Source of the DNA: Candidatus Fraserbacteria bacterium
GTDB taxonomy: Bacteria > Bipolaricaulota > Bipolaricaulia > RBG-16-55-9
Length of the DNA: 64,000 nucleotides
Assembly: GCA_037443265.1 (NCBI GenBank)
Contig: JBBIOR010000003.1
Coordinates: 1-64,000, forward strand
Direction of reading: 5' to 3'
The first letter of the stretch is position 1. Each line of letters begins with the position of its first letter. Under the pieces are notes generated by a model. That model was given only the letters and a program-made list of their open reading frames with translations, was not told the DNA's origin and did no database searches. The translations under genes were made by a program, and so were the position numbers. Below, piece by piece: positions 11,890-38,541 of this stretch.

Positions 11890-12471
11890 GTGAAATATAA
11901 GAGCTCAACTGCCATCATGGAGGAGCGGGTGCGTGAGTGGCTCCTCTGGCTGGGAGAAGACCCCAAGCGCGAGGGCCTGCGCGAGACCCCTGGACGTGTC
12001 GTGGAGCTCTATGAGGAACTCACGCAGGGCTATCGCGTCAATTTGCAAGAGATTGTGGGAGATGCGATCTTCACGGTCGATTATGACTCGATGGTCGTCC
12101 TTAAGGACATTGAGTTCTACAGCTTGTGCGAGCACCACCTCGTCCCGTTCTTCGGCCATGTGCATGTGGGCTACATCCCCAAGGGTCGAGTGATGGGGGC
12201 GAGCAAGATCCCGCGTGTGGTGGACGCATTCGCCAAGAGATTGCAGCTCCAGGAGCGCATGACGGAGGAGATCGCCCGCTTCTTGGAAGGGGCGATCCAG
12301 CCCCTGGGTCTAGGCGTGGTCGTCGAGGGGATGCATCTTTGCCTGGCCATGCGCGGGGTGGAGAAGCGGGAGGCATGGATGGTCACCAGCGCCATGAAGG
12401 GATCGTTCCGGAAAGACGCCAAGACGCGGTCAGAATTTTTGCAGTTCATCGCTCCGCGCTTGGAGCGATGA
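11890..12471 (+). CDS. folE: GTP cyclohydrolase I
   Basis: REGLRETP, SLCEHHLVPF, RLQLQER, HLCLAMRG. Confidence 0.96.
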   Translation: MKYKSSTAIMEERVREWLLWLGEDPKREGLRETPGRVVELYEELTQGYRVNLQEIVGDAIFTVDYDSMVVLKDIEFYSLCEHHLVPFFGHVHVGYIPKGRVMGASKIPRVVDAFAKRLQLQERMTEEIARFLEGAIQPLGLGVVVEGMHLCLAMRGVEKREAWMVTSAMKGSFRKDAKTRSEFLQFIAPRLER

Positions 12472-12640
12472 CCTGCTCGGCCCGTTCCGTGGGCGAGGGC
12501 TAGCGACTCGTCCACGAGCAGGGGGAGGGAAACCAACGGCGTTGGTCATCCGGACCCGAAGGAGGCAGACGCAAAGCCATTGGAGGGCTGCCGCTTGGGC
12601 CGAGCAGGTCATCTATGACGTCTTCCATTTTTATAATCGC
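12461..12640 (-). ncRNA. Unassigned structured RNA (6S-like candidate)
   Basis: Perfect 17-bp closing stem 12467-12483/12597-12613, nested stems and a C(UUCG)G loop on the minus strand, consensus promoter upstream. Confidence 0.55.
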
Positions 12641-12646
12641 GCAATG

Positions 12647-12676
12647 ATTATATCATAGGATATTCTGTCTTGTCAA
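12647..12676 (-). promoter_or_regulatory. Sigma70-type promoter with no downstream CDS
   Basis: TTGACA (12676-12671), 18 nt, then TGn-TATAAT (12652-12647). Confidence 0.75.
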
Positions 12677-12685
12677 GGGGTGGAG

Positions 12686-13573
12686 TCAGTGTTCATATCC
12701 GCGATCTTCCAGCTTGCAAACTCTTCCGTTCTCTTCGATCCAGACGCCCTTTGGAACGACCTCCCCAATGATCGTGAACCGAGTGGCCCTCGTGGCCTCT
12801 TTGAGGCGTGGCGGCGGGATCGTGAAGAGTAGCTCGAAGTCCTCGCCGGTGTAGAGCGCTATCTCCCGGAGTTCTTGCGGGCTTTGGGCGAGTTCATTCG
12901 CTTCAGGGCGAAGGGGTAGATCGCGATAGCGTACGCGAAAGCCCACATGGCTCGCCTCAGCCAGCTGATACAATGAGCGCGCCAGCCCATCGCTGATGTC
13001 CATCATGCTCGTGGCATAGGGAGCCAAGGCGAACCCTTCCGCCACCCGGGGGACGAACTCAAATAGCTCGTTGGCTCGCTTAAGCTCTCCCCGCTCGAAG
13101 AGCTTCAAGGCCACGGCTGTTGCTCCCAGTCCTCCGGTGATACCCACGAGATCTCCGGGCCGAGCGCCACTACGCCTGACGGGCCGGCGCGCCTCTCCCA
13201 GAGCGGAACTCACGAGCGTCAGCTCCGCATGGCGCGAGAGATCCCCGCCCACATAGGGGGCCTGCACACTCTGGCAGCAGTCGAGCGCACCTTGCAACAA
13301 TCCCTCCAGAAAACGGCGCTCAAACTCTGGAGCCCCCAAGGCCAAGACGACGCCCAGGGGCTTGGCCCCCATCGCGGCGATGTCGCTGAGCGTCACAGCC
13401 ACAGCCCGCCACCCGATCGCATGAGCGGTAGCGCCCTCGGGCAGATCCGCTCCTCTCCAGAGCATGTCCGTGGTCAGTACCAGCTGAGTCTTCCCTAAAG
13501 GGATGACAGCGCCATCATCCCCCACAGTGGGGAGTTTTTTGGCTAAAAATCTCAGAACTTGACGCTCTTTCAT
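12686..13573 (-). CDS. thiL: Thiamine-monophosphate kinase
   Basis: GDDGA, TTDML, SDIAAMGA, VGGDL, DISDGL, GEDFELLFT. Confidence 0.95.
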   Translation of the reverse strand: MKERQVLRFLAKKLPTVGDDGAVIPLGKTQLVLTTDMLWRGADLPEGATAHAIGWRAVAVTLSDIAAMGAKPLGVVLALGAPEFERRFLEGLLQGALDCCQSVQAPYVGGDLSRHAELTLVSSALGEARRPVRRSGARPGDLVGITGGLGATAVALKLFERGELKRANELFEFVPRVAEGFALAPYATSMMDISDGLARSLYQLAEASHVGFRVRYRDLPLRPEANELAQSPQELREIALYTGEDFELLFTIPPPRLKEATRATRFTIIGEVVPKGVWIEENGRVCKLEDRGYEH

Positions 13574-13631
13574 CGCCACTATCCTAGCAGACTCCCCTCC
13601 CTTAGGGAAAGACTAGAGGACCCGGGGGGAC

Positions 13632-13661
13632 TTGACAGGGCCCTATAGCGTGTGCTAACAT
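13632..13661 (+). promoter_or_regulatory. Sigma70 promoter of the riboswitch leader
   Basis: TTGACA, 18 nt, TG-C-TAACAT. Confidence 0.65.
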
Positions 13662-13676
13662 TACGCCCGTATCCGA

Positions 13677-13765
13677 ACCCGATAAAGGCAAACCCAGCGA
13701 AAGCTGGGAGCGCAAAGCCACAGGCCTAAAGGAAGGTTCCTATGGCAGCTGGGCTGCCGAAGGTG
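13677..13765 (+). promoter_or_regulatory. c-di-GMP-I (GEMM) riboswitch
   Basis: GGCAAACCCAGC-GAAA-GCTGGGAGCGCAAAGCCACAGGCCTAAA...ATGGCAGCTGGGCTGCCGAA matches the GEMM consensus (GNRA loop, CCTAA/ATGG receptor, GCAAAGCC, CCGA). Confidence 0.9.
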
Positions 13766-13870: not shown

Positions 13871-13902
13871 GCTTGGGCGCTCTTTGGGTCTTCGGTCCTC
13901 CG
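13871..13902 (+). repeat. Dispersed 32-nt repeat, copy 1
   Basis: GCTTGGG(C/T)GCTCTTTGGGTCTTCGGTCCTCCG; 31/32 identical to 37434-37465. Confidence 0.85.
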
Positions 13903-19921: not shown

Positions 19922-20028
19922 CTTCTATTTCTATTCTAGTCTAGTTCTAGCCCCTCGTTAGCAGTCTCATCTTGAGATTGCTAATCGGGATTATAGAGGC
20001 TGTTGGCCCTCCTGTCAAGGCTTCGGGC

Positions 20029-36307: not shown

Positions 36308-37060
36308 GTGATGTCCCGTAGGGCATTCTGGGTCATTGGGGGAATGATCTGCTTCGGGCTCTTTAAGGGTCTGGCAGCCGAAGAGCCTCCGCTCCCCCAG
36401 CCGATAGGGGAGCTCAACGACTACGCGGGCATCCTGGGACAAGAGAGCCGCCAGCAACTCCAACGCAGCATCGATGAGCTGAAGACCCAAGGCGTGAAGG
36501 TGTTTTTGCTGATCACTCTTCTTGATCCCTTCAGCGATCCTGCGCAGCTGGCAGAGAGGATCTGGCAGGCGTGGAAGCTTGCGCCTGAGCGAACGATCCT
36601 CATCGTGTTCGTGAGGGAGGCAGACCAGTGGGCTCTCTGGTGGAAGCTCACGCCGGATCTGGCCTCACAGTTGGACTACTCCTCCACTGGGGAGTATCGG
36701 AGCTCTCTGGAGCGGCTCCTCAAAGAGCGGCGGGTGGGACAGGCTGTTGTGCATTCCATTGAGTCGCTGCGAGGGTGGTTTGCCCCTCCCAAAGCGTCTG
36801 AGGAACTTCCGCCCAGAGCGGGTCCTTCTGCGGGCTCTCCGCTCTTCTGGTACCTGCTGGCAGGAGCAGGCGGAGTGGGGATGATTGCAGGCTTGATCTG
36901 GTTCGCTCTCGTCTGGCTCTGCCCCGAGTGCGGGGGGAGGCTGAGCCGGCGTTCTGCCTGGGCTTTCGGGCCCGGCCGTTGGGCTCGTAGCCGGAGGCGC
37001 GAGCGGGTATACTATTGTGCGCGATGTGGGTATCTCCGCATCCGACGGGGAGAGAGGTAG
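36308..37060 (+). CDS. TPM-domain membrane protein with C-terminal Zn ribbon
   Basis: LNDYAGIL, TM helix, CPECG..CARCG. Confidence 0.75.
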   Translation: MMSRRAFWVIGGMICFGLFKGLAAEEPPLPQPIGELNDYAGILGQESRQQLQRSIDELKTQGVKVFLLITLLDPFSDPAQLAERIWQAWKLAPERTILIVFVREADQWALWWKLTPDLASQLDYSSTGEYRSSLERLLKERRVGQAVVHSIESLRGWFAPPKASEELPPRAGPSAGSPLFWYLLAGAGGVGMIAGLIWFALVWLCPECGGRLSRRSAWAFGPGRWARSRRRERVYYCARCGYLRIRRGER

Positions 37061-37406
37061 AGGGCCGCGGAAGCGTCAAAGCTTCTGAGGAAAGTCCGGG
37101 CTCCACAGGGCAGGCCGCTCGGTGAGAAGCCGAGAGGGAGCGATCCCTGGGTAAGGCCACAGAGACCAGACCGCCGACGTGTACTTCAGCCGACAGGCCC
37201 GAAGCGCACAGGCAAGGGTGAAAGGGTGGGGTAAGAGCCCACCGCCGGTCCTCGCGAGAGGGCCGTGGCTGGCAGCCCCCCGGCCGGAGCAAGGCCAAAT
37301 AGGCAGGCGCTTGAGGGTGGCCCGCCCGAGCCTGTGGGTAGGCCGCTCAGATAGATGGCCCTCGCCCTTCATCAGGGAACAGAACCCGGCTTACGCCTCT
37401 CTCCCC
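37047..37406 (+). ncRNA. rnpB: RNase P RNA (type A, lacking P18)
   Basis: P1 GGGGAGAGAGG/CCTCTCTCCCC; GAGGAAAGTCCGGGCTCC; GGGTGAAAGGGTGGGGTAAGAGCCCACC; GAGCAAGGCCAAATAG; ACAGAACCCGGCTTAC. Confidence 0.96.
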
Positions 37407-37433
37407 GGCTTTGCTTTTCTGCCTGACAGCAAC

Positions 37434-37465
37434 GCTTGGGTGCTCTTTGGGTCTTCGGTCCTCCG
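37434..37465 (+). repeat. Dispersed 32-nt repeat, copy 2
   Basis: 31/32 identical to 13871-13902. Confidence 0.85.
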
Positions 37466-37572
37466 GAGCCCTGACTCCCATGCTGTGGCTCCTTGGCCCC
37501 TGCCTGCCGCGTCCCGACGAGCATCCTAGCACAAAGCGACGGAGGGGACAAATGCCCTCTCTTAAGTTCGGC

Positions 37573-37600
37573 TTGCATCCAGAGCGGGAAGTGCTATAAT
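37573..37600 (+). promoter_or_regulatory. ssrA promoter
   Basis: TTGCAT, 16 nt, TG-C-TATAAT. Confidence 0.7.
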
Positions 37601-37965
37601 AGCCTTGCGTTCTTTGACAATTGGGGGTGAATGGATTCGACGGGGATGCCGAAGGGCAGGCCGCAGGTGGAGTTGGCCGCTCACTCCTTAATCAGGCGGC
37701 AAAGCACGATAAGTGCCAACGAATTTGCTTACGCTGCTCCTTCGCTAAACTAACGAAGGAGCCGTTCGCTTGAGCTTCCGCCTGCAGGGCTCAGGACGAA
37801 CGTCGATGATGCGGGCTGGCTCTACTCTGCGCCCTCCGGAGTGGAGTGACACCTAGAGGGCTCGGACGCCCAGATCCTGTCTCGTGGGAGCTTAGCGTCT
37901 CAAAACAGAGCACGAGACTATGCCTGTAGAAGCCGATCGGAGGCATCTCCGGACGCGGGTTCGAT

Positions 37966-38541
37966 CAACTGCGTTATGGCAGTAAGGGTCGTCAAGGCGT
38001 TATCTCAAGCTGAGGCAGCCTATTTAGCTGGGCTTGTGGACGGCGAAGGTACTATCACCTTGACCCACATACATAAAGGAGCTAATAGGCAGCTGTCGGT
38101 TTCCATAGCCAACGCACAAGCTCTAGAGCTACTTCAGCAAATCGCGCCGTACCTCCGAACCTACAAGAGGTTACGCGCTGAGCTGGTGATAGAAAGATAC
38201 AAAGCCTTGACGCCTAGAAACGGCAAATACTCCCCCGAGCTTCTGGCTGAACGGGAGAGATTCATAGCAGCTGTCCTTGCCATAACTCCGAAGGTCGCCC
38301 TGGGCAGTAATGCTCAGGTGAACACGGGGCTCACATCGGCGAAACCTGCTTGCCCACAAGGCAATGGCAACGCCGAGGGGTCGGAAGAGGGCTAACCTCA
38401 GGCCGGCCCTGTAGAGACTTATAGGCCCGCCGAAGCTCAAGCTGGGTGGGTACTAGGAGCACGTCAACGTGCTAAGACGCCCCGCATCCCAGGAGGGATG
38501 AAGGCATAGTCCAGCCCAGTCCGAAAGGATTGGAACCGCTG
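37966..38541 (+). mobile_element. Group I intron (subgroup IA) in the tmRNA T-loop
   Basis: Preceded by U and ends in G. P1 CGAU/GUCG; P2 38299-38318; P3 CGGGGC/GCCCCG; P4 TCGGCG/CGCCGA; R GTAGAGACTTATA; P7.1/P7.2; P8 CATCCC/GGGATG; S AAGGCATAGTCC; P9 CCAGTCC-GAAA-GGATTGG. Confidence 0.93.
37976..38395 (+). CDS. Intron-encoded single-motif LAGLIDADG homing endonuclease, probably internally deleted
   Basis: AYLAGLVDGEGTI motif; ALELLQQIAPYL..YK..RA. Confidence 0.8.
   Translation: MAVRVVKALSQAEAAYLAGLVDGEGTITLTHIHKGANRQLSVSIANAQALELLQQIAPYLRTYKRLRAELVIERYKALTPRNGKYSPELLAERERFIAAVLAITPKVALGSNAQVNTGLTSAKPACPQGNGNAEGSEEG

Follow-up and report, generated by a model that had tools for sequence, protein, structure and literature searches.

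A near-ideal promoter in a lineage-specific insertion faces the 3′ end of folE in a Candidatus Fraserbacteria genome: a possible antisense transcript

Correia- and ERIC-type sequences are miniature inverted-repeat elements of bacteria. Among described regulatory RNAs, GadY of E. coli is a cis-encoded antisense RNA over the 3′ region of gadX (Opdyke et al. 2004, as cited in PMC7373196). 6S RNA is portrayed in PMC8876501 as a rod of two imperfect, bulged arms around a largely open central bubble; according to the same account, the helix adjoining the bubble must open for release (P2, at about −9 kcal/mol in 6S-1), and free B. subtilis 6S-1 has a 3′-side hairpin. At the DNA level, the flagellar switch of C. 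difficile, as given in PMC5386303, is a 154-bp segment with 21-bp repeats that lies downstream of its promoter. Here we analyze an element in the spacer between folE, which encodes GTP cyclohydrolase I, and a convergent thiL-like gene of a Candidatus Fraserbacteria bacterium (assembly GCA_037443265.1). The window, by which we mean the whole stretch of 64,000 nt that was analyzed, comprises positions 1 to 64,000 of contig JBBIOR010000003.1, and positions given without a contig refer to it. An earlier reading made from the letters alone (the sequence-only reading) had taken the element for an orphan structured RNA. Our favored reading, which we tentatively put at a probability of about 0.4, is that the promoter drives a non-coding transcript of recent origin, predicted at ~175–195 nt, that would run antisense to folE at its 3′ end.

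The predicted RNA gene starts with a sigma-70-type promoter on the minus strand. We located the TTGACA-18-TGnTATAAT arrangement described in the sequence-only reading, and it matches 12/12 consensus positions in addition to the TG. Perfect TTGACA-N16–19-TATAAT sites number 14 in the host genome and 15 in each of three relatives; none occur in the controls, which for the host genome were one reversed and two scrambled versions. Judged by eye from the printed downstream sequence, perfect sites precede tRNA genes, a 23S rRNA gene, riboswitch-like leaders, heat-shock-type operators and open reading frames (ORFs) bearing GGAGG. Perfect consensus promoters are a genuine signal in this lineage, and the promoter facing folE is among the two best of the genome, being one of just two of the 14 perfect sites that also carry the TG. 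The other (on contig C33) drives a GntR-like regulator; we rejected it as a related element, the likeness being confined to the promoter elements. Promoter geometry puts the predicted start at about 12640 (G) or at 12637 (A), 7–10 nt past the −10 element. The predicted leader contains an ATG at 12628 that has no Shine-Dalgarno motif, and no credible coding sequence lies downstream, as the sequence-only reading had maintained.

By their coordinates, folE and the thiL-like gene, each of which has its expected domains, converge on the element. The host genome is 1.69 Mb in size, has 59% GC and is 88% complete; rtcB lies two genes from the element. A separately built 6,273-nt contig from the same sequencing run covers 11900–13200 with 0 differences, and two other runs contain only short folE and thiL pieces from other organisms. 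Of the 21 genomes searched, 20 have FolE, and its convergence with thiL is kept in four family members (G001, G006, G003 and G007). Two of these are sister-genus genomes, with FolE identities of 82% (G001) and 88% (G006). The convergent spacer is 20 nt long in G001, ~85 nt in G006 and essentially 0 nt in G003 and G007, and the ~85 nt in G006 are unrelated in sequence and include a small hairpin and a T-run. Because these four convergent relatives have no counterpart, we regard 12472–12685 as an insertion restricted to this genus-level lineage.

Searches away from the junction agree with this picture. BLAST did not find the element in 40 relatives: its best match reached E 3.5e-4 and covered 31 nt, and two of its matches that we inspected look like ordinary coding sequence. 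A covariance model built from the single sequence gave nothing significant in the same 40 genomes (best E 0.47); run with filters off on 18 folE loci, it returned hairpin-only alignments with a best E of 0.12, and in 150 other genomes sampled from the phylum nothing significant (best E 0.069, a partial match). As a positive control we used a promoter-plus-leader stretch on contig C7 of the host genome, which was recovered in G001 (E 2.2e-23) and G006 (E 2.5e-6), so the search method works for non-coding DNA at sister-genus distance. A metagenome search with ThiL turned up no close kin of the host, the best relative being 47% identical.

The insertion is closed by the perfect 17-bp stem reported earlier: its arms, 12467–12483 and 12597–12613, are fully complementary, the duplex energy is −37.2 kcal/mol, and the left arm spans the folE stop codon. 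Inverted repeats of at least 13 bp within 400 nt number 69 in the genome; only three reach 17 bp, and the other two both lie in one small repeat-filled contig. The enclosed interior is C-rich (44 C versus 30 G) and holds three CCUCC motifs, starting at 12586, 12565 and 12528. The strand asymmetry of the earlier description also holds. Three G-U pairs of the main arm can form in a minus-strand RNA only, and the side hairpin has, by eye, one G-U pair on the plus strand that is an A-C mismatch on the minus strand, which leaves the evidence on strand mixed. Next to the stem, the last seven codons of folE encode APRLER-stop as they do in G001 and G006, with the stop changed from TAG to TGA. Base differences from both genomes at 12453, 12462, 12466 and 12470 leave the protein end unchanged, and each of them turns a mismatch into a Watson-Crick pair in a hairpin at the coding end. 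These four changes would reflect selection for local pairing or, alternatively, one template switch.

Table 1. Features of the folE–thiL junction, in window coordinates
Feature	Position	Strand	Remarks
folE (GTP cyclohydrolase I)	11890..12471	+	Pfam PF01227, E 4.7e-71; sense gene under the predicted transcript
folE stop codon	12469–12471	+	
9-bp hairpin at folE coding end	12447..12470	.	−15.3 kcal/mol; abuts the 3′ arm of the closing helix, 4-nt overlap
folE–thiL spacer insertion	12472..12685 (214 nt)	.	junction alignment with G001, G006, G003 and G007: no counterpart
GC-rich part of insertion	12472–12613		67.6% GC
AT-rich promoter part of insertion	12614–12685		37.5% GC
3′ arm of perfect 17-bp closing helix	12467..12483	−	overlaps folE last codon and stop (12467–12471)
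5′ arm of perfect 17-bp closing helix	12597..12613	−	
Interior enclosed by closing helix	12484..12596 (113 nt)	−	C-rich internal loop, apical arm, side hairpin
Side hairpin	12488–12516	−	
Apical arm with cUUCGg loop	12533–12583	−	
Predicted 5′ leader	12614..12640	−	27 nt; from promoter geometry; mostly unpaired in the fold
Sigma-70-type promoter	12647..12676	−	12/12 consensus positions plus TG
Extended −10 element, TGaTATAAT	12655..12647	−	TG 12655..12654, TATAAT 12652..12647
−35 element, TTGACA	12676..12671	−	18-nt spacer to −10
thiL-like gene	12686..13579	−	AIRS / AIRS_C domains; upstream of the promoter, same strand

A promoter of this quality on the opposite strand faces folE, and both the closing stem and the neighboring hairpin overlap the end of the gene. 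From this arrangement we infer a transcript, its ends and an antisense action. A recent insertion of ~214 bp would have brought in a near-ideal sigma-70 promoter that points toward folE and is almost certainly active. The RNA would start near 12640 with its leader, continue through the 17-bp clamp around 113 nt of loosely folded C-rich sequence, and extend into the last folE codons, at least as far as the 12447–12470 hairpin, for a total of ~175–195 nt or more. We found no terminator-like site in 12440–12690, neither on the way from folE into the element nor from thiL toward the promoter. Because no terminator separates folE from the element, the folE mRNA carries its exact complement, and the transcript would therefore be cis-antisense by construction. 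The likeliest effect would be on 3′-end processing or stability of the folE (rtcB-folE) mRNA: an RNA duplex might form, converging polymerases might collide, or the two might act together. The host genome encodes RNase III as well as Rho: RNase III would be available to cut the duplex, and Rho probably sets the extent of transcription on the C-rich untranslated RNA. Owing to the clamp and the abutting hairpin, the end of either RNA would be very stably structured. This antisense reading explains the promoter, its orientation and the overlap with folE while not requiring conservation.

Several observations weigh against such a transcript. Public sequencing runs containing this DNA comprise one DNA run, from a subsurface metagenome that is probably the source sample itself, and no RNA run. 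No homologue was found among the 40 relatives and the 150 phylum genomes, so the covariation analysis that the sequence-only reading had proposed is not possible. Absence from the sister genus means that the RNA, if made, is dispensable for the family, and the pairing changes at the folE end could have originated in a template switch instead of selection. An intrinsic terminator that would define the 3′ end is lacking in 12440–12690. The closing stem is a Watson-Crick repeat free of G-U pairs, which is equally typical of a DNA palindrome, as at insertion ends or after template switching, and of an RNA helix. Folding adds two further points. A 201-nt stretch of this region folds better than all of 200 shuffled sequences on either strand (z −3.9 for minus, −3.8 for plus), with the plus strand more stable than the minus strand (−93.9 versus −85.7 kcal/mol). 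The 113-nt interior, on the minus strand, is at chance level (z −0.63, 53/200 shuffles equal; plus strand z −1.32, 19/200). The statistical fold signal is essentially the clamp, not an elaborate interior structure. The helices drawn inside the clamp in the sequence-only reading, together with its cUUCGg loop and its side hairpin, do lie where it placed them, although the interior as a whole folds no better than shuffled sequence. Its proposal of an undescribed small RNA (sRNA), perhaps antisense to folE, holds up insofar as such an RNA would account most simply for a very strong orphan promoter that points at the folE 3′ end.

The same repeat and insertion can be read at the level of DNA. In such a reading the insertion is a functionless relic, the 17-bp repeat is a palindrome left by decayed mobile ends or by a template switch, and the orphan promoter sits in an AT-rich block; the palindrome would at most act as a 3′-end barrier or stabilizer for the folE and thiL messages, neither of which has another terminator-like site in the spacer. 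The perfect repeat with no G-U pair, an interior no more foldable than shuffled sequence on either strand, the empty junctions of the four relatives and the sharply two-part composition in a genome of 59% GC all fit this explanation. Several results count against it. Beyond the perfect 17-bp repeats themselves, no flanking direct duplication is visible by eye, and the dispersed copies by which a miniature inverted-repeat transposable element or a repetitive extragenic palindromic element would be recognized do not occur: the element is present once in the 1.69 Mb of the 88%-complete genome, with no partial copies, and the 17-bp arm allowing up to two mismatches occurs four times, two of these being the arms themselves. 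A pattern scan of 185,579 species genomes gave 0 matches to the arm pair with a gap of 100–130 nt, and the same held for viral contigs; a phage collection yielded two ~30-nt matches only (E 0.2–0.8) and a plasmid collection none. A scan with a 21-nt apical stretch gave one match, in a Phycisphaerae metagenome-assembled genome, which by eye is a ribosome-binding site and start codon on the other strand and was discarded. The genome has one tyrosine recombinase and no serine recombinase. Above all, a promoter matching 12/12 positions plus TG, with 0 perfect sites in the controls, is very unlikely to be accidental and is left unexplained by a relic, which we consider unlikely though well worth keeping in view. 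An active counterpart would be an invertible switch, in which the 113-bp segment flips between a C-rich, Rho-sensitive transcript and a G-rich one and so gates antisense transcription of folE. Immediately past a strong promoter lies a short segment bounded on both sides by perfect 17-bp repeats, a geometry like that of the C. difficile flagellar switch as described in PMC5386303, the interior looks DNA-level rather than RNA-level, and Rho, encoded here, is implicated in the C. difficile system in PMC7446863. Yet we see one orientation only, in contigs that cannot show minor variants; the single tyrosine recombinase (PF00589, a 297-aa frame) and the missing PF00239 serine recombinase refer to a genome 88% complete; there are no comparable repeat pairs elsewhere in the genome and no surface or variable gene downstream. 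We find a switch hard to credit.

Other explanations keep the promoter and give it a different product. RsaE and RoxS are C-rich regulators with which the CCUCC motifs of the element can be compared, and a trans-acting sRNA would expose these motifs to pair with the Shine-Dalgarno sequences of target mRNAs. The three motifs occupy predicted loop or bubble positions (mean unpaired probability 0.44–0.64), at least three of them occur in just 0.8% of 147-nt genome windows, and the promoter is strong. Against this, the best predicted pairings with 1,949 candidate translation-start regions did not surpass those of shuffled loops in two cases out of three and surpassed them only slightly in the remaining one, the 88%-complete genome yielded neither Hfq nor CsrA (for which reason we also set aside the ideas of a CsrA sponge and an Hfq-dependent sRNA), no homologues occur in the relatives or the sampled phylum genomes, and there is no RsaE-type match in Rfam; such an sRNA seems improbable. 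The sequence-only reading had also offered a divergent 6S RNA, and a very divergent form or a lineage-restricted functional analogue, acting as a decoy for sigma-70 RNA polymerase through its strong promoter and clamp-closed open loop, would suit the predicted length, the promoter and the absence of an ORF. A closing stem, an internal loop, an apical hairpin and a 3′-side hairpin can be traced in the fold, and the role is formally unfilled, RF00013 finding none in this genome or 40 relatives. The closing helix, however, is perfect and very stable, whereas the arms of 6S RNA are described as interrupted by loops and bulges, the interior is at chance level, and a housekeeping RNA should be shared, whereas this one is found neither at the conserved sister-genus junction nor elsewhere in those genomes. 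No 6S-type model matched at E≤10 with lax filters. A 6S identity is not supported in our view, and we consider even an analogue very improbable. Finally, the promoter might serve a small protein, from a 42-aa ORF (12628..12500) or a 60-aa ORF (12612..12430), both of which begin no more than 30 nt from where transcription is predicted to start. In the latter, by eye, a weak GGAAG precedes the ATG by 9 nt and an N-terminal stretch is hydrophobic, but the start of this ORF is buried in the 17-bp helix; the former has no ribosome-binding motif where host genes usually show GGAGG (by eye). Neither belongs to a Pfam family or has a homologue in a search of 5.8 billion proteins, and their proline/arginine/serine-rich composition is typical of chance ORFs in GC-rich DNA, so that a coding product is scarcely credible.

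Comparison with Rfam identified no known family at the element. At gathering scores, the window contains RNase P RNA, tmRNA, a cyclic di-GMP (c-di-GMP)-I-GGC riboswitch and one tRNA, all elsewhere. A lax search of 12380–12720 at E≤10 gave no 6S-type, RsaE-type or Y-RNA family, and we dismissed matches to ceN44 (E 4.1) and mir-4677 (E 8.8) as chance. We judge a plus-strand match to the c-di-GMP-I-GGC model likewise (13 bits against a gathering score of 59, E 1.8, partial, with both hairpin tips missing), and with no valid aptamer match and no terminator after it we rejected a riboswitch gating the antisense transcript. The scan for 6S and signal recognition particle (SRP) RNA suggested earlier was negative here, SRP RNA being found on another contig (61.8 bits). 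A bacterial Y RNA, considered on account of the nearby rtcB, was rejected: the genome has no TROVE/Ro60 domain and no Y-RNA model matched at E≤10. RF00013 found nothing in the whole host genome at E≤10; the model misses 7–9 of 14 control genomes, so that failures to find 6S RNA are weak evidence. The 41 genomes of the class (G000–G040, G000 being the host) likewise gave nothing with RF00013 at E≤1, and 6S RNA is either too divergent for the model throughout the class or absent from it.

The C7 stretch that served as our positive control is of interest in itself. Located outside the window at C7:69086–69330 of the host genome (locus L172:187–430), it consists of a perfect TTGACA-17-TATAAT promoter followed by ~130 nt without an ORF. 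Stretch and promoter are conserved in the sister genus (G001 L156:104–250, G006 L152:1501–1640), with a different downstream gene in G006. It contains a tandem 8-nt, operator-like repeat and has neither an Rfam match nor a convincing consensus fold. We consider it a candidate conserved leader or small RNA; as an alternative 6S RNA we rejected it, since it is not rod-like and lacks an Rfam match. Behind each of three other perfect promoters lies an inverted repeat of 9 nt whose halves are 9 nt apart (C1:31125–31153, window positions 19990–20018 on C3, and C14:8–36), resembling the CIRCE heat-shock operator. The small contig C44 is packed, at 450–930, with copies of a 15-nt palindromic motif in both orientations and is possibly a repeat array or a mobile-element fragment.

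Within the window, the c-di-GMP-I-GGC riboswitch (76.4 bits) lies at 13632–13762 on the plus strand, divergent from thiL, and is preceded by a promoter of the form TTGACA-18-TAACAT that also carries TG. At 37049–37967, likewise on the plus strand, the genes for RNase P RNA (214.9 bits) and for tmRNA (131.7 bits) adjoin each other. A 32-nt direct repeat, 97% identical between its copies, occurs shortly past the c-di-GMP riboswitch region (13871–13902) and just past the RNase P RNA gene (37434–37465), and may be a common terminator or processing motif. Direct repeats of 55 nt, 100% identical, stand at exactly 155-nt spacing at two unrelated loci (8682–8736/8837–8891 and 16447–16501/16602–16656); because the spacing is identical at both, this suggests an artefact of assembly or scaffolding, not biology. 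The sequence has a run of N near 14.5 kb.

Should the transcript prove real, the locus would be a compact case of the birth of a regulatory RNA gene through a ~200-bp insertion, which added a near-ideal promoter and a palindrome at the 3′ end of a gene in the folate/queuosine-precursor pathway, in a lineage whose sister genus does without the RNA. A 6S analogue, were it true, would mean that a global transcription regulator was invented or replaced within a single genus. Independently of either, canonical sigma-70 promoters provide a clean and usable signal in a little-studied, uncultivated lineage. At present the value of the element is mainly as a target for metatranscriptome analysis or a heterologous promoter test.

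Each of the described systems shares part of this architecture. Correia/ERIC-type elements resemble it as intergenic units of ~150 bp with terminal inverted repeats beside a promoter-bearing stretch, and differ in that ours is a single copy with no visible target duplication and an arm pair absent from the 185,579 species genomes scanned. Like the C. difficile flagellar switch, it has a short segment with perfect or near-perfect inverted repeats on both sides, located past a sigma-70-type promoter and ahead of the transcribed region; unlike it, it shows no second orientation, no dedicated invertase was found, and nothing but antisense folE lies downstream. It is comparable with 6S RNA in predicted size, in the strength of its sigma-70 promoter and in an outline that can be drawn with a closing stem, an open middle, an apical hairpin and a 3′-side hairpin, whereas the perfect closing helix, the chance-level interior, the absence from the sister genus and the lack of a match to RF00013 and related models set it apart. 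The GadY type of antisense RNA differs from our element, known here from its sequence, in the 17-bp clamp around 113 nt, the missing terminator and the restriction to one genome. What the putative folE antisense RNA and GadY-type RNAs share is a promoter of their own on the opposite strand, the absence of an ORF and a sequence that is by design fully complementary to the neighboring message at its 3′ end, in a host that encodes RNase III.

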